From: a virus
Length of the DNA stretch: 64,000 nucleotides
Reading direction: 5' to 3' (one strand)
IMG/VR virus record: IMGVR_UViG_3300024308_000021
Coordinates: 5,467-69,466 of that record
Both the position numbers and the translations under genes were made by a program. Shown here in pieces: positions 4,835 through 24,503 of the stretch. A model generated the notes under the pieces. That model was not told the DNA's origin, ran no database searches, and saw nothing but the letters and a program-made list of their open reading frames with translations. The number at the start of each line of letters is the position of its first letter. Within the stretch, counting starts at the first letter, position 1.

Positions 4835-5821
4835 ATGTTGCTGAAAACACCATACGACGCACCGGTCATGAAAGCCTATGACCTCAAAAAAATCCAATCC
4901 CAAGTAGCTGAAGCCATCGTAGCTGGTGAGTATGCTAGTCGTGAAAAACTCGACGAGTCTGCTGCTATCTACAGAACTCCTAATCCGATGTGGGATTTTG
5001 AGCTGGCTAATGACGTCGTGGCTATCGTGAAAAATACTGACTGGAAAACCACAGTCGATCCTTTCCCTATTCCTTTTAAGATGCGCACTGCTGCTGGTAA
5101 AGAGCTGTACGTCCTGGATGCTCGGATGTACACAGCTCCGGCCAACCACTACCGTCAGTACGGCATTATGCACAACCCGTCTGAGATTGGTGTGTATTCC
5201 GACATTATCTCTTGGATGCGTTGCTGGGATGCCCGTGAGGGTGGTGACATTCGTCGTGTGCATGACTACGTGACTGGTACTTTCGCTAACTGGATTGCCA
5301 GTGCTGTTTCCAGGATCACTGGTGTGAACGGTGGTGAGGATTACGATATCATTCGTTTCCTGGCAGCTTACTGGTTCCAGGCTCAGTTCTCTGAAGTACC
5401 TTACGAGGTTACTGTAGAAGAGCGTCTGCGGATGCGTCGCGTAATGACCAACTGCTGGCCTCGCCCGGATTCCGTGGTAGATCTGCAAACCAAGGACTTC
5501 GGTTACATCGGAAACCTGGAAGACTTCCTGGAAGCGGTTAAGAAACAGCTTCCTAACAATCGTCGGGTACACATGCTCAACCGGGCTTACTTCACACAGC
5601 AGATCGCCAACAGCTGGCGCGGCTTCCATGCTGGTGTGATGAGCAACGTGGCTATGGAGTATCCTCCTTTCTTTATCGCCATGTACTACTACTCGCTGAC
5701 CAACGGTTGGGCTAAAGATGTTGGTTTGGGTAAAGTAGCACAGAACCTGCGCGATACTCAAAAGCGTGCAGACTTCCTGGCCTCCTATCGGAGAACTATC
5801 AATGTCTGGAAACAGCCGTAA
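4835..5821 (+). CDS. virion structural protein (phiKZ gp28-like)
   Basis: 328 aa, GGAAGG RBS, divergent from the sheath as in the phiKZ-like core block. Confidence 0.6.
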   Translation: MLLKTPYDAPVMKAYDLKKIQSQVAEAIVAGEYASREKLDESAAIYRTPNPMWDFELANDVVAIVKNTDWKTTVDPFPIPFKMRTAAGKELYVLDARMYTAPANHYRQYGIMHNPSEIGVYSDIISWMRCWDAREGGDIRRVHDYVTGTFANWIASAVSRITGVNGGEDYDIIRFLAAYWFQAQFSEVPYEVTVEERLRMRRVMTNCWPRPDSVVDLQTKDFGYIGNLEDFLEAVKKQLPNNRRVHMLNRAYFTQQIANSWRGFHAGVMSNVAMEYPPFFIAMYYYSLTNGWAKDVGLGKVAQNLRDTQKRADFLASYRRTINVWKQP

Positions 5822-10058: not shown

Positions 10059-12248
10059 ATGATTCGATTTCACAGTGACTGGGCTAAGTACCCTGACGCG
10101 ATACCACATTTATCCACCAAGAATAAGTCGTTCCTTAACATGGCGAAGCTTTATCGCGACATGGGTAAAAAGAATGCTTACTTCTTGTTGGCTTTACATC
10201 AGCCAGAACTACAACACCTAGATCCTCACGCCGATGATCTAACAGAAGATGAAAAATTCAAGATAGGTATTGAGTGTAAATACAACATCTGGTATTTCTT
10301 GCGGGAAGTTGTACGCATACCAGGTGGTGACCACGGCGTGCCTTTCAACGCCAACCGGGGGAACATAGCTCTGGTGTGGCTGCACATCTGTAACGTTGAC
10401 GTGGCGCTGATACAACCACGTCAGACTGGTAAGTCGGTTTCGACCGACGGCATTATGCTCTGGTTGTTGTATTTCGGTAACTACAACAAAACGATAGGAC
10501 TGATCACTAAAGACCACTCCCTGCGGGTAGGTAACGTTGAACGTCTGAAGAAGTTCAGGCAGTTACTACCGACGTATCTGTACTCAGTAGCTCGTGAAGA
10601 CACTGACAACCAGATCGAGCTTACCAACATCAAGATGAAGAACAAATACGAGACAGCTGTTGCTCAGAACTCTGAGATGATGGCTAACAACGTATTTCGT
10701 GGTAAGACGCTCCCGACTATCCAGTGTGACGAAGGCCCGTTTATTCCTTGGATCAGTATCACGCTGCCTGCGGCGCTGGCGGCTACTACTGAAGCTTCTC
10801 AGCAAGCAGCTCGTGAAGGGAAACCTCACGGTAACATCTTCACTACAACCGCAGGTAAGAAGGACGACCGGGACGGTAAGTACATGTACTCGCTGATCCA
10901 CAACGGTCTCCCATGGACTGAAGACTTGCTGGATCTGGAAGATCGTGAGCAGCTCCATCAATTCATCAAAGCAAACGTACACGCCGATGAGAACGGGGTG
11001 CGTCGGATGTTGGTAAACTGTACGTTCAACCATCGTCAGCTAGGCTTTACTGACGAGTGGCTCTACGAGCGGATCGGTAAGGCTGGTGGTACTGAAGATC
11101 AGATCAACCGTGACTGGTTTAACGTTTGGACTAGTGGTACTCAGAACTCTCCGCTTAGTATCAAACTCAACGGCATCATTAAAGACTCTGAGCGCGATCC
11201 TCTGCGCACTGAGTTCACCAAGGAGGGTTACGCTATCCGTTGGTACGTGGAGCCGTCAGAACTCGCTACAGGCCATTATTTCATGGGTCTCGATACTTCC
11301 GAAGCATTGGGAGGTCAGAACGATGACATTGCGATGGTTCTAGTAGACATTCGTGATATGTCTGTAGTGGCTCAGATGTCTGTGAACGAGACTAACCTGT
11401 TTAACTTTGCTAACTGGTTGGCGTTGTTCCTGATCGATCATCGTAACGTAACGCTGATACCTGAGCGTAAGTCTTCTGCTACTAGCATCATCGGTTTCGT
11501 ATGTCTGATCCTGCAACGCTACGGCGTAGATCCTTTCGAGCGGATCTTCAACCACATCGTACAAGATCAGCATCAGCATCCTGAGAAGTTCAAAGAGATC
11601 CAACTGTCCTTGAGTCGTCGTACTGAACTGTTCTACGATGATTTCATCAAGTACTTTGGTTTCGTAACTGGTTCCAACAACCGGGACGAGCTCTACGGGA
11701 ATACGCTTCAGAACGCCGCTAAGCAAGCCGGGCATTTGGTAAGGGATAAGATCCTAGGTGGTCAGATCCGTGGTCTGGTGGTGCGTAAGGGCCGTATAGA
11801 CCACGCTGCTAGCGGACACGATGACTGTGTAATCGCTTGGCTGCTGACTCACTGGTTGGCTACTCAAGGTCGCTACCTCGAATACTACGGTGTAGATACT
11901 CGTCAGTTGATGAAGTTCGTGACTGAAGAGAACCGTACGCTAAACGAAGTAGAAGTACGTGTGAAAGAAAACCAGGCTAAGATGAAGCAAGAGATCGAAG
12001 AGTTGGTACAACGCTTGGGTAAAGGTGGTAGTCCGATCGAGCAGATGCGTATCGAGCATCGGTTGAGATTCCTCTACCCACAGGTATCTTGGACTGAAGG
12101 TAGTTACTCTTCTGTGGATGAGTTGCTGCGCAGTATCAAAGACCAGCGTAAAGTCAACACTCGGATGAACTCACTGAATCGAGGGACTGGGTATCGTCCT
12201 GCAAATCGTGCTTGGGATTCCAATACTCAAGTGTTTGGTATGCGTTGA
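10059..12248 (+). CDS. terL: terminase large subunit
   Basis: Walker A PRQTGKS, Walker B IQCDEG, nuclease MGLDTSE and HDDCVIAW. Confidence 0.95.
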   Translation: MIRFHSDWAKYPDAIPHLSTKNKSFLNMAKLYRDMGKKNAYFLLALHQPELQHLDPHADDLTEDEKFKIGIECKYNIWYFLREVVRIPGGDHGVPFNANRGNIALVWLHICNVDVALIQPRQTGKSVSTDGIMLWLLYFGNYNKTIGLITKDHSLRVGNVERLKKFRQLLPTYLYSVAREDTDNQIELTNIKMKNKYETAVAQNSEMMANNVFRGKTLPTIQCDEGPFIPWISITLPAALAATTEASQQAAREGKPHGNIFTTTAGKKDDRDGKYMYSLIHNGLPWTEDLLDLEDREQLHQFIKANVHADENGVRRMLVNCTFNHRQLGFTDEWLYERIGKAGGTEDQINRDWFNVWTSGTQNSPLSIKLNGIIKDSERDPLRTEFTKEGYAIRWYVEPSELATGHYFMGLDTSEALGGQNDDIAMVLVDIRDMSVVAQMSVNETNLFNFANWLALFLIDHRNVTLIPERKSSATSIIGFVCLILQRYGVDPFERIFNHIVQDQHQHPEKFKEIQLSLSRRTELFYDDFIKYFGFVTGSNNRDELYGNTLQNAAKQAGHLVRDKILGGQIRGLVVRKGRIDHAASGHDDCVIAWLLTHWLATQGRYLEYYGVDTRQLMKFVTEENRTLNEVEVRVKENQAKMKQEIEELVQRLGKGGSPIEQMRIEHRLRFLYPQVSWTEGSYSSVDELLRSIKDQRKVNTRMNSLNRGTGYRPANRAWDSNTQVFGMR

Positions 12249-12296: not shown

Positions 12297-13664
12297 TCAT
12301 CGCTTGTAATACTCTCTGGTGAGCGTACGAAGCACTACATACAAAAAGATGGCCGTACGTACCGCTGCAAGTACATCGCGGTTAGAACTCGATACAGCCT
12401 CTTTTACGATGAGGTCACCTTCGTTACGGATTTTGAGCACCACTTCGTTTACAGAACGAGAAGCTGTGTACATAAACCGAAGTTTAGAGATGATCACATC
12501 GAGTTGAGTAGCTCGATAACCTTTGGACTGGATGTAATCGAAGGCATGGATCAGTACATCGTCCACTAGCTCTACGATAAACGGGTACTTCTGGTTACCG
12601 TAGTTGGCTTGTAGGAACTCCAGTCCTTCGACGATGTGTTTGGTATCCACACCAGTCATGGCTTCTGACACGACTTCTACTAACTCTGATTTGATAAACG
12701 AGTTACGATCTTGCAGAACCGATTGTAGGTACCTACGATAGATTGTAAACGCGTTTGCCTTGTCCCGCAGTACTACCTCACCCTCAATCTCTACTGTGTT
12801 GCCACGCGCGCTTATACGAGCGTTACGGTCACGTACGTTGTAGAACTCAGCAGTGAGTGCTTTTACTACTTCACGTATACGAGACTGGATGTCGTTCACC
12901 ATGTACACGATAGCTTTGTCTGAGTCGTAACGTGTGTAGGTTTGGAAGTGTAAGCCTTTAGGGGAAGTGATCAGTTCAGCACGTGCTTGGATCAAGGCTT
13001 CCCAGCTACCGAAGACTTTGATGTCGAACTTCTTAGACAGCGAAGCATAGGTAGCCAGAGCTACTTCACGATCAGCCGGAAATGGGAAGTAGTGCGCCAT
13101 CAGACTCGATACGAATTTGTAGTGCATGATCTTGATCAGATCGATCTTGGCTTGCTGCTGCTCTTTAGGAGAGATCTGTTTGGAGTTGTGGATCTGGTAG
13201 AGTAGCCAGATGATCGACTGGTTCATTGCATCCGAAGACACTACGAAGTTAGGGTCGATACCTTCAGCTGATTTTACAGCTCTTCCTAACTGGATGTCGT
13301 CACAATCCAATACGTCGTCAAACCAAGCTAGACGGTCGTCTTCTGTAAAGCGTACAGGATACACTCCTATAAGCGGATTACCGAAGAACTGGATGTGATC
13401 CGCATCCTTAGTCACAAAACCTAAAGCAAAGCGTCTAATCGCTTTACAGAGCTTTAGATCGTACTTCAGGTGACCTAGGTGTTGTTCGAATACTGGACGT
13501 AGGCTACACAGTCTAGAGTCGTACTCTTCTAAACTGAGTTCCCATTCCCGTTCGAAGCGGTGTTCGAATGATTCATTACTCCAGACCAAGTCTGCGAGTA
13601 AAGTGTTGTCGAGGAGTTCCTCGAGACTAGGCGTTAAGTAATCTATCATCTTAAGGGATCCCAT
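12297..13664 (-). CDS. conserved virion structural protein (phiKZ gp32-like)
   Basis: 455-aa helical ORF convergent on terL; synteny. Confidence 0.6.
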   Translation of the reverse strand: MGSLKMIDYLTPSLEELLDNTLLADLVWSNESFEHRFEREWELSLEEYDSRLCSLRPVFEQHLGHLKYDLKLCKAIRRFALGFVTKDADHIQFFGNPLIGVYPVRFTEDDRLAWFDDVLDCDDIQLGRAVKSAEGIDPNFVVSSDAMNQSIIWLLYQIHNSKQISPKEQQQAKIDLIKIMHYKFVSSLMAHYFPFPADREVALATYASLSKKFDIKVFGSWEALIQARAELITSPKGLHFQTYTRYDSDKAIVYMVNDIQSRIREVVKALTAEFYNVRDRNARISARGNTVEIEGEVVLRDKANAFTIYRRYLQSVLQDRNSFIKSELVEVVSEAMTGVDTKHIVEGLEFLQANYGNQKYPFIVELVDDVLIHAFDYIQSKGYRATQLDVIISKLRFMYTASRSVNEVVLKIRNEGDLIVKEAVSSSNRDVLAAVRTAIFLYVVLRTLTREYYKR

Positions 13665-13718: not shown

Positions 13719-14507
13719 ATGTTCTACGCTAACACTCCGATCACTAAGTGGTCTCGCATTCAAGACATCAAATTCCCGATGGTAGTACAACACCATCTTC
13801 CTGGTAACTGTTTTACTGCAAACTACCACGAGGGTCACTACAACCTGATCACTCGTCAGTTCGCTTACGAAGACAGCGGTATGGCACGTGCTGTGCTGAA
13901 CTGGCTGGGTACTGTGGGTATCTCCAACGCCACTACAGTAACGTTCGATATCCAGCATCGTCTGCTGACTACTTCTCAGTCCAGAGAGATGGTTATGGAT
14001 GAGATGTTGTTTGCAGTTCCTACATTCGAACTCAACGGATGGTTGGTGCGTATCTACGACCACAACGGTGTGGTGACTTCTCCTGAAACAGTAGAAGAGT
14101 ATCTGATTCCGAAAGTAGAGGTACACGACGACCTCGAGCTGGAACATCAGTATCGCTGTATTGCAGAACTGCGTGGCGTGCTGGGCTTCTACGTACACGC
14201 TCAAGACGGTGAGGTATACAACCTGCCGGTACGTCGCTGGTTGGCTGTGAAAGGCGACTACGATCGTCGTAGCGGTACTCTGATGGTACGTGGTATCGAA
14301 GATCCTAATTACATTGGTCGCTTCAATACCAAAATGAACCGGGTACTGGAGAAAGCATTACAGGACAGTCCTGCAAACCTTGAGTTTCAGGTTTCCTATT
14401 CCAGCCTGGCTCGTCAGATAGATGGTCGTGTGAATATGTTCGGACTGCGCTACGACGGTCATAATCCTGACACTTCTAAAGATCATCAGCTGTGTGGGGT
14501 GTTCTGA
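13719..14507 (+). CDS. hypothetical protein, accessory
   Basis: 262 aa, AATAAGGG RBS. Confidence 0.85.
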   Translation: MFYANTPITKWSRIQDIKFPMVVQHHLPGNCFTANYHEGHYNLITRQFAYEDSGMARAVLNWLGTVGISNATTVTFDIQHRLLTTSQSREMVMDEMLFAVPTFELNGWLVRIYDHNGVVTSPETVEEYLIPKVEVHDDLELEHQYRCIAELRGVLGFYVHAQDGEVYNLPVRRWLAVKGDYDRRSGTLMVRGIEDPNYIGRFNTKMNRVLEKALQDSPANLEFQVSYSSLARQIDGRVNMFGLRYDGHNPDTSKDHQLCGVF

Positions 14508-14752
14508 TGCACTTACGAGCTACACTGAACTTACAACTCAACACGGTACTTCAAGATCCGGAGCTCTCTACTGTAGAGCAACTGAAAGAGGAGTATCCGT
14601 TACTGATCCAGAACCTGAAGGACTACTGTTTCGATTCAGGGTGTCCTGAACCAGACTCTAGACTGGAGTTGCTGGAGTCTAAAGGTATTATGTGTTGGAA
14701 GGAAGAGGATGGCATGGTATTCAAATTCCCTTTTGGGAATCTGGTACTGTGA
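14507..14752 (+). CDS. small hypothetical protein (81 aa)
   Basis: TGATG coupling to the previous gene. Confidence 0.7.
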   Translation: MHLRATLNLQLNTVLQDPELSTVEQLKEEYPLLIQNLKDYCFDSGCPEPDSRLELLESKGIMCWKEEDGMVFKFPFGNLVL

Positions 14753-14787
14753 AACTACAACCCGTGTTTGCTTCGTGTTGAAGCAAG

Positions 14788-14813
14788 GCCCACTTAGGTG
14801 GGCTTCTTTTTTT
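14788..14813 (+). terminator. intrinsic terminator
   Basis: GCCCAC-ttag-GTGGGC plus TTCTTTTTTT. Confidence 0.8.
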
Positions 14814-14906
14814 GTAACTATCTGTATAGACTCGGTTTTATATCGAGGCGTATTGTAACAATCCAGGAGGCTTCTGTGTTTCCTATCGATTCTACTTAAG
14901 AGGTAA

Positions 14907-15263
14907 ATGAAAATGTCTAGACTAGCTCGAGCTTTCCGTTCTCTGGAATGCAACCAAGGCGTTACTGTGGTATTGGATCTCAATCCTGACTACGCTACTA
15001 ACGAAGTATTCTTCAACTCTATCAACCAAGGCAGCGGGAGTGCCCAGGGACGCATTCGACATCATCTGGCTAAGTTCGGTATTAGCTACTTTGCTCTCAC
15101 TGGTATCAACTCTCTGGAGCAGTGTCACGAAGTCTTGGCCGACTATGGAATGAACAACTGTGGGTCAGGTCGTATCCTACTGATGTGGGATCGCAGACCC
15201 GTGGGGATCGAACAGATCGTAGGGAGCTTTAACAACAAGATTGCTGATGTGGTCTTCTGCTAA
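14907..15263 (+). CDS. hypothetical protein
   Basis: 118 aa, GAGGT RBS, followed by a terminator. Confidence 0.75.
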   Translation: MKMSRLARAFRSLECNQGVTVVLDLNPDYATNEVFFNSINQGSGSAQGRIRHHLAKFGISYFALTGINSLEQCHEVLADYGMNNCGSGRILLMWDRRPVGIEQIVGSFNNKIADVVFC

Positions 15264-15265
15264 GC

Positions 15266-15299
15266 GAGGGGGCTTCGACCCCCTCTAGTTCTTTTTTTT
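15266..15299 (+). terminator. intrinsic terminator
   Basis: GAGGGGG-cttcga-CCCCCTC plus T run. Confidence 0.8.
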
Positions 15300-15726
15300 G
15301 CCCTCGTGCGCCGAGCCGCCCGATCGCGCCTGGCTGCGCCGCGCCCAGAGTTTAGTTGCTAATTCGTATTTTTTCTTTTAGAGTATACAAGATACTCTAA
15401 AAGCCTCTGATGAGGTTTACTATTTGATTTTTTATTTTATCACGTTAGTGATTCTTCTTTTCAATTTAAAACATTAGAGTAGTGTGATACGTAGTAATCT
15501 AAACTACTCTAATTTAAACATTCAACTAGTTAGCTAATTGGTTTTTTTAAGTATGTAAAAAATTACATAGTCTTATTATATGTGAAGTGCTATTAAAAGA
15601 CGACTGAGTGAAGAGACTGAGGGTATCGAAGATACACGAGGGAACGGAACGAAGGAGATCAGAATGGAACGACGACTCTGACCCACTCTAGCGAGGAGCT
15701 AGAGGGGGGAGGTGGCGGAGAGGCAA

Positions 15727-15816
15727 GGGGTAGGAAGAGATAGAGAAAGGAAAAGGGGGAGGAGGGGCGCAGCCCCTCCGTCTGGGGGAAAAGGAAAGAG
15801 AAAGAGAAGGAAGGGG
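15727..15816 (+). repeat. polypurine mirror repeat, 33-nt arms (31/33), around a central hairpin
   Basis: 15727-15759 read backwards equals 15784-15816 except for two T/A positions; spacer holds GGAGGGGC-gca-GCCCCTCC. Confidence 0.92.
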
Positions 15817-15980
15817 GATTTCAGCAAAAGCTGAATAAATCCCCAGTAAAATACTTTTTTATTCGCTTACTTAGAAACGACTAGCTAGTGGTGGCTTTAG
15901 CTAAACCACGAGAGCTAGGAGTCGGATTGCAGTTAGTTTCAGCAGGTTCCTGGAAGACAGCGGAACCCACTGGATTTCAG

Positions 15981-15998
15981 ATACATATTACTACAATG
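15981..15998 (+). promoter_or_regulatory. putative early promoter
   Basis: TATTAC-N5-TG followed by hairpin CTAGGAGCT-tgg-AGCTCCTAG and an AATAAAGGGG RBS. Confidence 0.6.
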
Positions 15999-16057
15999 CA
16001 TCTAGGAGCTTGGAGCTCCTAGCTTTATTTCCCAAAATAGAATAAAGGGGTTTTAGA

Positions 16058-17836
16058 ATGCAAGAAAAGATTCAAGAGCAACTCGATGCATTACAAGGAA
16101 GCTGGATCCTACAGTGCGTAAGAGACCACGGAAGTCCAGAGGCGTTGGATGACGATACGGTACCTGGGTACGATGTAGTCGTGGGGGAGTACAGACTGTC
16201 ACTACGCAAACAGGAACTGCCCAGGAGGTATCTGAGTAGCTACAATCCAGTGAACATTACAACTAATCTCGAAGTAGACGATAAAGCTCCTAAGCTCCTG
16301 AAGCTTTACGCAGAGCATCTGAATCGCAAAACAGACGAGACTTGGTTAGCTGTACTCGAAGAACTCGTACAAGTAGAAAACAAACTCAATAAGAAGGAAA
16401 AGAAAATGTTGAAACTGCATTGGGATCTGAGAATTGAAAAACTGAACGACAGTAATCCTCACAAAGGAGTAGTACTGGGGGATTACGTTCTGTCGATAAC
16501 CAACGCACCTAGCTTTTATCCAGGATATAAGCTTCACTGTCCTCCAGTGCCGCCGAAGCTGGATGATGGTGAGATTTTTGAGTTGGTAAGAGCTGGTAAA
16601 ATCACAGAGCTGGAAGCTGCGGTTTTGGAGTACAGTAAACACTGCGGTAATCCAACTTCGGCTACAGTAGGTGAGCTGGAAGCTGCTCTCGAGAAAGCTG
16701 GGGCTGAGTGGTTTGCTATGGAGCAAGAGATCAAGCACATAGTAGGTCAGATGCAACTCCACTGGCACGCCGGGGTAACTGATAATAAATACAAAGACCC
16801 AGTCAAAAGAGAAGTAATACGCCAACCAATAAACGATACTCAGTGGTTCGTTTTGAGTTGTATGGATCCAATTGCTTTTCATCCGAAGGGTTTTTGTTTC
16901 GAACCGCCTGTTTGCTTGGGAGAAGTCCTTAATGAGCACCTGGGTGTGGTTGCGGGACACTATCTAGATATCGTAAATGTCGACCCGGCAAACCCTCGTA
17001 GTATGAAACGTTATCATGCCCTCGTAAAACAAATTTGGGCGTTGGAGAAAGCAATGGATCAGTCTAAACCAGCAGACACCCAGCTAGGGTTCACTCAGGT
17101 CGATGATGTTACTGTAAAAATCGAATCGCTGCGTAGCAAACTTAAGTACGATTGGTTATTCCAGATAGTTGATGCTGGAACTCCGGATCATGCAATCTGG
17201 CCCGAAGCTAATATGTGGTGTCGCGACTCTTTAAGCAATGGTAGTGACTTAGCCATCCTTTATCGTCCTAAAGGAGAAGAGTTACTTGGCTTTTTGAAAA
17301 TAGGCGGGCATCCATTCCAACAGTTCCACAACGCTACGATAACAAACCGACTTACTGAAGAGTTTTTGAATATGATTGGTAGACATACCACCAATGTACC
17401 GGTGTTTGAGAAAACCCCCGGTTATGTGGATCTGCTCGAAGCAGTCTTGGAACAGGAAACCAAAATGGGACAGGGGTGGTCGACTGAGGGAGCAAGCCAC
17501 CAACACTCACTCAAACTCAACCCAACACCTACCGCGTACAGCTACCTGGTGGTGTTCCAGGATCTGATGGCTCCGCAGAGTACTGTACTCGGTGCTGACT
17601 GGGTTGGTAGTTTTGAGATCAAGCCTCTTTACAACGTCGCTGTGTATCGTGCTCCTTCTGAAAGCTTTGCGCTGATGTTTACACTGGATGGTAACGTCCG
17701 GGTTGATGCTCTAGAAGCAGGTGCTAAAGGTACCGGTCTGGCAGCGCAGCTCAGTAAGCTGGCTGTAGCGCACCTGGGACACACTACATTAGAATGGAGA
17801 GAGACCACTAAGCTCCTGCGTGCTTGTTTCGAATAA
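16058..17836 (+). CDS. hypothetical protein, apparently made of ~115-aa degenerate modules
   Basis: 592 aa; in-frame internal Met at residues 117 (MLKLHW) and 232 (MQLHW). Confidence 0.85.
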   Translation: MQEKIQEQLDALQGSWILQCVRDHGSPEALDDDTVPGYDVVVGEYRLSLRKQELPRRYLSSYNPVNITTNLEVDDKAPKLLKLYAEHLNRKTDETWLAVLEELVQVENKLNKKEKKMLKLHWDLRIEKLNDSNPHKGVVLGDYVLSITNAPSFYPGYKLHCPPVPPKLDDGEIFELVRAGKITELEAAVLEYSKHCGNPTSATVGELEAALEKAGAEWFAMEQEIKHIVGQMQLHWHAGVTDNKYKDPVKREVIRQPINDTQWFVLSCMDPIAFHPKGFCFEPPVCLGEVLNEHLGVVAGHYLDIVNVDPANPRSMKRYHALVKQIWALEKAMDQSKPADTQLGFTQVDDVTVKIESLRSKLKYDWLFQIVDAGTPDHAIWPEANMWCRDSLSNGSDLAILYRPKGEELLGFLKIGGHPFQQFHNATITNRLTEEFLNMIGRHTTNVPVFEKTPGYVDLLEAVLEQETKMGQGWSTEGASHQHSLKLNPTPTAYSYLVVFQDLMAPQSTVLGADWVGSFEIKPLYNVAVYRAPSESFALMFTLDGNVRVDALEAGAKGTGLAAQLSKLAVAHLGHTTLEWRETTKLLRACFE

Positions 17837-24483: not shown

Positions 24484-24503
24484 AAACCTATATTACCCTA
24501 CTG
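24484..24503 (+). promoter_or_regulatory. putative early promoter
   Basis: AAACCTA-TATTAC-N5-TG. Confidence 0.65.

Follow-up and report, generated by a model that had tools for sequence, protein, structure and literature searches.

What is the function of a purine-rich tract that interrupts the longest intergenic gap of an uncultured giant phage genome, and why should its sequence have been retained there? The window analysed here is a stretch of 64,000 nucleotides (nt), positions 5,467 to 69,466 of the IMG/VR virus record IMGVR_UViG_3300024308_000021. Its source contig (labelled G000) has 125,585 bases and is estimated to be 45% complete; all coordinates below are window positions. The gap in question (15264-16057; 794 bp) lies between the open reading frames ORF118 and ORF592, and the original prediction had proposed its purine-rich DNA as an R-loop-primed replication origin or a packaging signal. 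Our analysis suggests that the tract may be the transcribed core of a conserved, single-copy, cis-acting module that couples transcription to the formation of a triplex and an R-loop (an "H-loop"), a reading to which we give about an even chance. The module lies where the packaging/structural genes give way to an early operon in an uncultured clade of phiKZ-like jumbo phages.

The purine bias of the tract sets it apart from the remainder of the contig. In 200-nt windows the purine fraction of the + strand peaks at 0.77 against a contig mean of 0.505 (standard deviation 0.035), which is 7 standard deviations above the mean, and this is the sole region exceeding 0.68 in all 125,585 bases. Purines account for 76% of the + strand over 15600-15820 and for 81% over 15691-15832. 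The six G runs reported earlier (15704-15709, 15727-15730, 15755-15759, 15764-15767, 15784-15788 and 15813-15817) are all present, and the description of this strand as almost only A and G is accurate for about 15705-15820 outside the central hairpin but not for 15600-15700, where about 30% of the bases are pyrimidines. Three hairpins named in the same account (15686-15704, 15814-15844 and 15878-15924) do fold, with z scores of -2.6 to -4.9 relative to shuffled sequences, and the AT-rich element said to adjoin the tract corresponds to a block with 25% G+C that holds inverted repeats. The suggested G-quadruplex was not borne out, as the tract contains no canonical motif (four runs of at least three G with loops of at most 12 nt) and its G runs are spaced 16-24 nt apart.

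At the core of the tract lies a 33-nt polypurine mirror repeat (15727-15759 and 15784-15816) arranged around a 24-nt spacer (15760-15783). The arms mirror-match at 31 of 33 positions, giving a score of 27 compared with 7.7 +/- 1.2 in 300 shuffles. They are 97% purine, with two T residues in the left (5') arm, while the right (3') arm, a feature that extends to 15817, is purine only. No other mirror repeat in the contig rises above the threshold, and the equivalent repeat is the best in the complete relative G006, where it is also the purine extreme. The spacer is occupied by an 8-bp GC hairpin (GGAGGGGC GCA GCCCCTCC) that is invariant in eight relatives and, as predicted from its fold, brings both arms together.

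These eight relatives (L018, L036-L041 and L044, all from other metagenomes) were found through homologues of ORF592 and ORF118 in a collection of 5.8 billion proteins. The closest IMG/VR relative is L002, which is the complete 223,650-bp genome G006 and has a head-family protein 56% identical to that of the window, and a third clade is formed by G004 (complete, 266,646 bp; the record behind L010) and L008. Comparison of the arms demonstrated that changes occur in pairs. In four of the close relatives (group B) AGG is replaced by GAG and one A is added to an A run, in both arms and at mirror positions. The arm sequence of L002 is unrelated, yet it retains a mirror match of 27/32 around a spacer of 30 nt. 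G004 and L008 carry a smaller polypurine mirror repeat, with arms of 21-22 nt and a 33-nt spacer closed by an 8-bp stem, and L008 differs from L010 by a further AG/GA swap that is mirrored in both arms. A spacer stem of 5-8 bp abuts the arms in all three clades (TTAGG/CCTAA in L002, AGATTAAT/ATTAATCT in G004). Homologous recombination cannot keep mirror repeats alike, and therefore the symmetry itself appears to be under selection; from these alignments, mirror symmetry is maintained by compensatory changes.

The mismatches that do occur within the arms are of a restricted type. T opposite A accounts for both mismatches in group A, three in group B, four of five in L002 and two per sequence in G004 and L008, and only one difference of another kind was seen within the repeat, a C facing T in L002. 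Within each clade the T residues are always found in the same arm. The rule of the purine (reverse-Hoogsteen) triplex motif tolerates T opposite A. When triplets were scored with the T-bearing arm as the third strand, allowing G.G-C, A.A-T and T.A-T, valid purine-motif triplets were obtained at 33/33 positions in group A, 34/34 in group B (33/33 in L040), 31/32 in L002 and 20/21 and 20/22 in the G004 clade, the remainder in the last being T residues at the arm ends. This mismatch pattern argues for a putative triplex of the H-r type over the acid-dependent pyrimidine form, and a symmetry kept by compensation points to a candidate triplex (H-DNA or H-loop) and not to a plain R-loop or a G-quadruplex.

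Sequence conservation across the gap was measured for each segment against the window sequence in the eight relatives. The 5' purine-rich part (15600-15726) is 99-100% identical and the promoter-like box preceding it 94-100% (eight relatives each), the AT-rich block 92-97% (seven relatives, versus 70-82% in adjacent genes), the mirror module 92-100%, the 3' hairpin 87-96% and the early promoter with its hairpin 84-88%. Lower values were obtained for the variable linker (58-81%, with many gaps) and for the upstream terminator with its GC clamp (62-76%), and the genes gave 77-82% for ORF118, 70% for ORF262 and 87% for the head-family gene, with four-fold degenerate sites at 37-65%. L018 differs from the window at three positions in about 282 nt (15553-15834), while its flanking coding DNA is 75-77% identical. 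On these identities the module is constrained far more strongly than the surrounding genes and far beyond neutral expectation.

Such extreme conservation might also arise if the module were a recombination linker or a recently exchanged mobile cassette, its near-identity being due to horizontal exchange between relatives that infect the same cell and the tract itself without function. The gene content on both sides does differ among relatives, and the unit, like a moron, has a promoter at one boundary and a hairpin at the other. We nevertheless regard this as the least probable of the explanations considered, with only a very slight chance of being correct, for synteny of the module is retained across three clades that have diverged deeply, identity changes by degrees from segment to segment (99-100%, 92-97%, 58-81%) and does not form one block, and mirror-compensatory changes cannot come about through homologous exchange, no copying mechanism being able to keep mirror repeats alike.

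The tendency of the tract to form an R-loop was assessed from hybrid-minus-duplex energies, computed with nearest-neighbour parameters (Sugimoto 1995; SantaLucia 1998) for 150-nt windows on both strands. The tract is the best window on either strand in G000 (-49 kcal/mol, z -7.4) and in G006 (-44 kcal/mol, z -6.4), and the G004 element ranks third in its genome. The R-loop part of the original prediction is thus upheld as a computed, thermodynamic preference: RNA from the + strand would give the most stable RNA-DNA hybrid of the contig, and a promoter-like box lies upstream. Sequence complementary to the arms was not found elsewhere in G000 or G006, the host not having been examined. As their own template strand is the only partner found in the phage genomes, action in cis is favoured. 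In G004 a lone 19-nt copy of the right arm was noted at 119,309-119,327 on the + strand; it forms no mirror repeat there, and the noncoding DNA around it, over 1 kb long, includes a tRNA-like GGATTCGAACC string.

On the reading that we prefer, the promoter-like box (about 15552-15599) would direct RNA polymerase rightward through about 145 nt of purine-rich DNA and into the polypurine mirror repeat (H-motif). The purine-rich RNA would pair back with the pyrimidine template as an R-loop, and the freed T-bearing 5' purine arm of the non-template strand could then fold back onto the duplex of the 3' arm, guided by the spacer hairpin, to yield a purine-motif triplex (G.G-C, A.A-T, T.A-T). The product would be an RNA-stabilised H-DNA, or H-loop, that arrests polymerases and holds the RNA 3' end on the template. 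In (GAA)n repeats the purine strand is given to an H-r triplex and its complement is left single-stranded, whereupon homopurine RNA binds it as an H-loop, which stabilises the structure and stalls polymerases (PMC5909440); stalling of transcription and replication, and of RNA polymerases, by H-DNA is also described in a review (PMC11667243). We infer transcription from the box, formation of the triplex and R-loop in vivo, and a biological use.

Several observations weigh against this mechanism. The 127-nt 5' part is invariant to a degree that exceeds what an element acting by structure alone needs, which hints at recognition of its sequence by a specific protein or RNA. Spacers of 24, 30 and 33 nt are long for classical H-DNA, and the T-bearing arm is 5' in the window and L002 clades and 3' in the G004 clade, so that a different isomer would be formed there. 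The promoter-like box rests on short motifs, TATG being a 4-mer.

A coding role for the tract was also considered. Consistent with the earlier description of the region as noncoding, no frame is conserved among relatives of what is a single-copy and strongly selected element. A 40-amino-acid (aa) frame opening with GTG does not survive in L038 and is displaced in group B, ATG starts are absent, and 1-nt indels are present in both arms of the mirror repeat in relatives; with no frame conserved and indels in both arms, the tract is not coding. The small reading frames examined (a 40-aa basic peptide, a 42-aa minus-strand peptide and the mini-ORF MERRL) were rejected for want of a conserved frame. 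MERRL belongs to a separate observation at 15652-15681, where a perfect Shine-Dalgarno sequence (AAGGAG) stands 6 nt before the ATG of this 5-codon mini-ORF and its stop; the sequence is invariant in close relatives, as are its surroundings, and L002 has a different Shine-Dalgarno-ATG pair that opens an unrelated 29-codon frame.

A noncoding tract that follows a promoter-like box and ends in a hairpin or terminator could instead encode a small RNA, purine-rich and about 250-280 nt long, that acts in trans, an explanation that we consider unlikely. Such an RNA might be a sponge for binders of GGA/GGAGG or A-rich sequence (CsrA/RsmA-like proteins, Hfq or the anti-Shine-Dalgarno end of 16S rRNA), or else a natural RNA form of a polypurine reverse-Hoogsteen hairpin whose clamp closes on a polypyrimidine target. 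The invariant 127 nt would suit specific recognition, GGA occurs about a dozen times alongside several perfect Shine-Dalgarno-like motifs, and phiKZ produces many short RNAs of the 5' untranslated region type (PMC10914365). RNA polypurine mirror-repeat hairpins are reported to work (PMC8466063). For homopurine RNA, the formation of intermolecular triplexes is reported not to occur (PMC5909440). A sponge whose motifs are redundant can bear substitutions, whereas nearly every base is fixed here, and mirror symmetry is useless in a free RNA that has no pyrimidine partner, only its own template having been found in the phage genomes. Conservation of 92-97% in the 200-nt AT-rich block upstream is far beyond the need of a promoter, and L018 has no U tract. 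Covariance models of Rfam 15 gave no match in the tract (14500-17000 scanned, E up to 1), neither to CsrB, RsmY, RsmZ or CrcZ nor to any other family; the single hit in the scanned interval was isrB at 14754-14808, below threshold and outside the tract. ARAGORN detected neither a tRNA nor a transfer-messenger RNA (tmRNA) in the tract.

Synteny in three clades also speaks for the H-loop reading. In the window clade and in L002/G006 the module is directly downstream of the terminator of the ORF118 homologue. The layout of L002 matches that of the window, with a terminator, a GC stretch and an AT-rich stretch with the box TACGTAGTAA..TACTCTAA following the ORF118 homologue, then GTAAAAAAATACGTAG, ATATG, CTATAAAAG, about 230 nt of purine-rich DNA and a canonical terminator; the next gene begins 45 nt past the element. 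The element of G004 and L008 is placed and oriented in the same way with respect to the phrog_2921 gene, and the gene upstream is an unrelated one of 137 aa. A DNA similarity search of the gap against GenBank phages, tblastn with ORF592 and an IMG/VR search for the exact 31-nt core pattern (0 hits) gave no match, IMG/VR scans with ORF592, ORF262 and ORF118 returned nothing new, and a search with the conserved-box pattern matched the L002 contig only. Relatives of the L002 ORF116 are on very short contigs that lack the element.

This shared position would also suit a polymerase-independent, orientation-specific transcription barrier (insulator) that shields the early operon from the late/packaging side and has no role in replication. 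The H-motif is located between the terminator of the upstream operon and the downstream genes in all three clades, a conserved early promoter (TATTACTACA) stands directly after it in two of them, and what the three clades have in common is the H-motif with flanking hairpins at a border with downstream, often early, genes, and not the AT-rich block. H-DNA is known to stall RNA polymerases (PMC5909440; PMC11667243). We judge a pure barrier to be somewhat less probable than a small RNA gene. Good intrinsic terminators already flank the module, a barrier would need neither a dedicated promoter that reads into it nor the invariant 127 nt nor the AT-rich block, and the gene that begins 45 nt past the element in L002 shows no promoter of its own.

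As to what an H-loop would be used for, we rank priming of replication or recombination first, a barrier before the early operon second and initiation of packaging third. Replication priming as the use of the module is a tentative suggestion drawn from sequence features, and that the module is the replication origin of this lineage, with a transcription-triggered, triplex-locked R-loop whose trapped purine RNA primes the leading strand beside an AT-rich unwinding or binding block, is in our estimate doubtful. In favour of an origin are its single copy, its location in the largest gap, the AT-rich block with inverted repeats, the promoter-like box, the propensity for an R-loop and strings resembling a polypurine tract (PPT). 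Cumulative GC skew, proposed earlier as a check, does not change direction at the element of the complete relative G006 and reaches no extreme at 64.8 kb; a skew maximum does lie about 2 kb from the element of G000, on a contig that is only 45% of the genome. Skew is a weak marker in phages and this result does little to exclude an origin. The G004 version consists of the H-motif only, without the AT-rich block and the 5' part, and the syntenic locus lacks the element in G001, L004, L007 and L009 and in the cultured phages PS119XW, Xoo-sp14, AH06 and RTH11; nor does phiKZ have a comparable tract. These distributions, together with the skew of G006, count against an origin, as does the fact that triplexes are better known as blocks to replication forks than as their starting points. 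Our literature search found neither a mapped origin nor a polypurine element described for chimalliviruses.

Other purine-rich sequences in these genomes were examined and set aside. Polypurine runs in phiKZ, PS119XW, Xoo-sp14 and AH06 appear, from their sequence, to be coding runs rich in Glu and Lys, and a pyrimidine-rich window at 143 kb in G006 was rejected as a second element, being the acidic tail of a gene. In G001 (L003 4800-5885, minus strand) about 1 kb of DNA that lacks a purine tract follows the ORF118 homologue; an AT-rich part of this DNA contains a TACGTA-type box (GCGTACGTACGTAATAAACT) reminiscent of the TACGTAGTAA box conserved in the window and L002.

The module is placed 3 kb past the large terminase gene. 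Being single-copy, structured and situated at the late/early border, it could also be a packaging initiation (pac) site or a site of genome-end processing read by the terminase machinery. Many phage genomes have their ends at such a border. Contigs L016, L018, L020, L033-L035 and L043 stop inside the region. We consider this explanation very improbable, since long contigs of three assemblies pass through the region and the break points are scattered over 15272-15827, a pattern more in keeping with coverage lost where base composition is extreme than with fixed ends. To our knowledge no small terminase is known for these phages, which also counts against a packaging site. The contigs that end within 15272-15827 come from several independent assemblies, and most contigs with an ORF118 homologue are shorter than 2 kb; these ends are probably due to failure of coverage or assembly in AT-rich and polypurine DNA.

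The genome that hosts the module is that of an uncultured giant (phiKZ-like) phage of a chimallivirus lineage. Identity between its proteins and those of cultured phiKZ-like jumbo phages reaches about 40% at most. To the left of the module are virion genes, then the large terminase subunit gene terL (10059-12248, + strand; phrog_2, E 2e-46) as part of the late/packaging block, the head-protein-family gene (12297-13664, - strand; phrog_2921) and a short operon of ORF262, ORF86 and ORF118. terL adjoins the phrog_2921 homologue at the same position in Xoo-sp14 and AH06 too. ORF118 (14907-15263, + strand), the last gene of the operon, serves as the synteny marker, with homologues directly upstream of the module that are 35% identical in L002 (E 3e-20) and 78-88% identical in L036-L044. 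It matched neither a Pfam nor a PHROG family; a protein-atlas feature search gave a weak lead to a PI-PLC X-like fragment (score 0.97, the family being found on 11% of members) and nothing tying it to replication or packaging.

On the right, ORF592 (16058-17836, + strand, ATG at 16058) is the first gene after the gap and belongs to no known family in Pfam or PHROG. A 99% identical ORF592 from another sample (L020, 194-1987) has an N-terminus five residues longer (MSAATLLEKIQ.. compared with MQEKIQ..) and the linker upstream of it is swapped for a different 26-nt sequence. The gene content flanking the module varies even among close relatives (L037-L041, L018 and L019 compared with window 15264-17836), with extra genes of 124 and 104 aa upstream and genes of 592, 356, 334, 223 or 178 aa downstream. 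The genes on either side thus change from contig to contig while the module persists, and it is located in a hot spot of gene exchange.

The remaining anatomy of the gap can be read from left to right. The intrinsic terminator of the upstream operon (15266-15299, + strand), a GC hairpin followed by T8, is poorly conserved in sequence, and the GC-rich clamp behind it (15300-15350) varies among relatives. The AT-rich block (15351-15552; about 25% G+C) contains conserved inverted repeats at 15376-15402, 15401-15418 and 15473-15513 and an ATCAC/GTGAT pair, several of them perfect; two of the pairs have TTAGAGTA in common, and the box TACGTAGTAA..TACTCTAA of this block is kept in the distant L002. 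The promoter-like box (15552-15599, + strand) is composed of the inverted repeat TATGTAAAAAATTACATA (15552-15569), TATG (15579-15582) and CTATTAAAAG. L002 shares its motifs GTAAAAAA.TAC.TAG, ATATG and CTAT.AAAAG, and GTATTGTATGC is found upstream of the G004/L008 element; a conserved, putative promoter box with TATG precedes the element in three clades. TATG matches the late-promoter element T-3ATG+1 of phiKZ (PMC7598289), at motif level only. A sigma-70 promoter scan returned 0 sites, which says little since these phages use their own polymerases.

The 5' purine-rich part (127 nt, + strand) bears GGA/GGAGG motifs, hairpins at 15623-15635 and 15686-15704 and the G6 run at 15704-15709. Beyond the right arm, a 3' hairpin (15814-15844) and a T6 run (15855-15860), together a feature at 15813-15862 on the + strand, form the terminator-like end of a putative purine-rich transcript. 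A distance of 10 nt separates the T6 run from the hairpin in the window. The T run is missing from L018, and L002 has a canonical terminator (GGGGGAAAACCCC followed by T9). The variable linker (15863-15980, + strand) contains the hairpin at 15878-15924 among others and has many indels among relatives.

The gap ends in an early-type promoter (15985-16030, + strand) in which ATATTAC (15985-15991) precedes a hairpin of 9 bp (16002-16022) and then a T-rich tail; the gap also holds the ribosome site of ORF592. GTAATAT/ATATTAC occurs in seven copies on the contig, all seven intergenic and each aimed at a downstream gene, the further copies being located, in window coordinates, at 24489-24496, -4670, -926, 90530, 106358 and 118767. 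The TATATTAC motif is also found upstream of genes in G006, and by its distribution ATATTAC is a real signal of this phage. As a genuine signal before ORF592 it gives that gene its own promoter, and the purine tract is not merely its leader. Copies of TATATTAC are trailed by a conserved ..AAGTGCAAT.. stretch, and the copy at 15985 adds the 5' hairpin with its T-rich tail. The unit resembles the promoter-early-stem-loop cassettes of T4-type phages that shuffle early genes.

Among known systems, the module resembles H-DNA-forming H-motifs such as the (GAA)n repeat of FXN and the H-loop in its mirror polypurine arms, in the purine strand being the non-template strand and in the expected homopurine RNA (PMC5909440; PMC11667243), and by analogy an H-r triplex with a polymerase-stalling RNA-DNA hybrid would be expected. 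Unlike those simple repeats, it is a unique sequence of 33 + 33 nt with a 24-nt hairpin spacer that is single-copy, syntenic and subject to compensatory mirror changes, and it is embedded in a conserved unit of 500 nt with its own promoter-like box; it looks selected, whereas the known cases are mostly pathological or incidental. Polypurine reverse-Hoogsteen hairpins (PPRH) likewise have two antiparallel polypurine mirror domains and a loop, tolerate T opposite A and bind a pyrimidine strand as a triplex (PMC8466063); they are artificial oligonucleotides with loops of 4-5 nt, whereas the element is natural and genomic, and its own template is the only partner found in the phage genome.

The BoxC or PIT ("potential intrastrand triplex") repeats of E. 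coli and other bacteria are also short tracts that co-vary as a triple helix needs. They differ in being dispersed and multi-copy, with purine and pyrimidine tracts on one strand, while the element is single-copy with both arms purine, as in H-DNA. The likeness to ColE1 RNA II, T4 oriF and oriG and the mitochondrial LSP-CSBII region, which the original prediction had also drawn on, lies in a promoter-like box that would read into a G-rich non-template stretch prone to a persistent RNA-DNA hybrid, with an easily melted, AT-rich neighbour, in one copy. The AT-rich block of the module is upstream of its promoter and that of T4 R-loop origins is downstream, the mirror/triplex design is not part of any of these origins, and there is no sequence homology. 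Strings of A runs and G runs (e.g. GGAAAAGGGGG) recall the retroviral PPT, whose RNA-DNA hybrids withstand RNase H and serve as primers for DNA synthesis. The resemblance is one of composition only, reverse transcription playing no part here.

H-DNA has long been known as a structure of mirror repeats, mostly as a source of instability. Evidence that evolution maintains H-DNA is scarce. In the three phage clades compared here, paired changes in the two arms preserve mirror symmetry, in a module that is more conserved than virion genes. This provides an argument, at the level of sequence, that a triplex or H-loop may be a working part of a giant phage genome. Should the module prove to be an origin, it would be the first proposed for nucleus-forming phages and the first natural origin device built on H-DNA. 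As a concrete candidate cis-element it is useful even if its role is in insulation or packaging.

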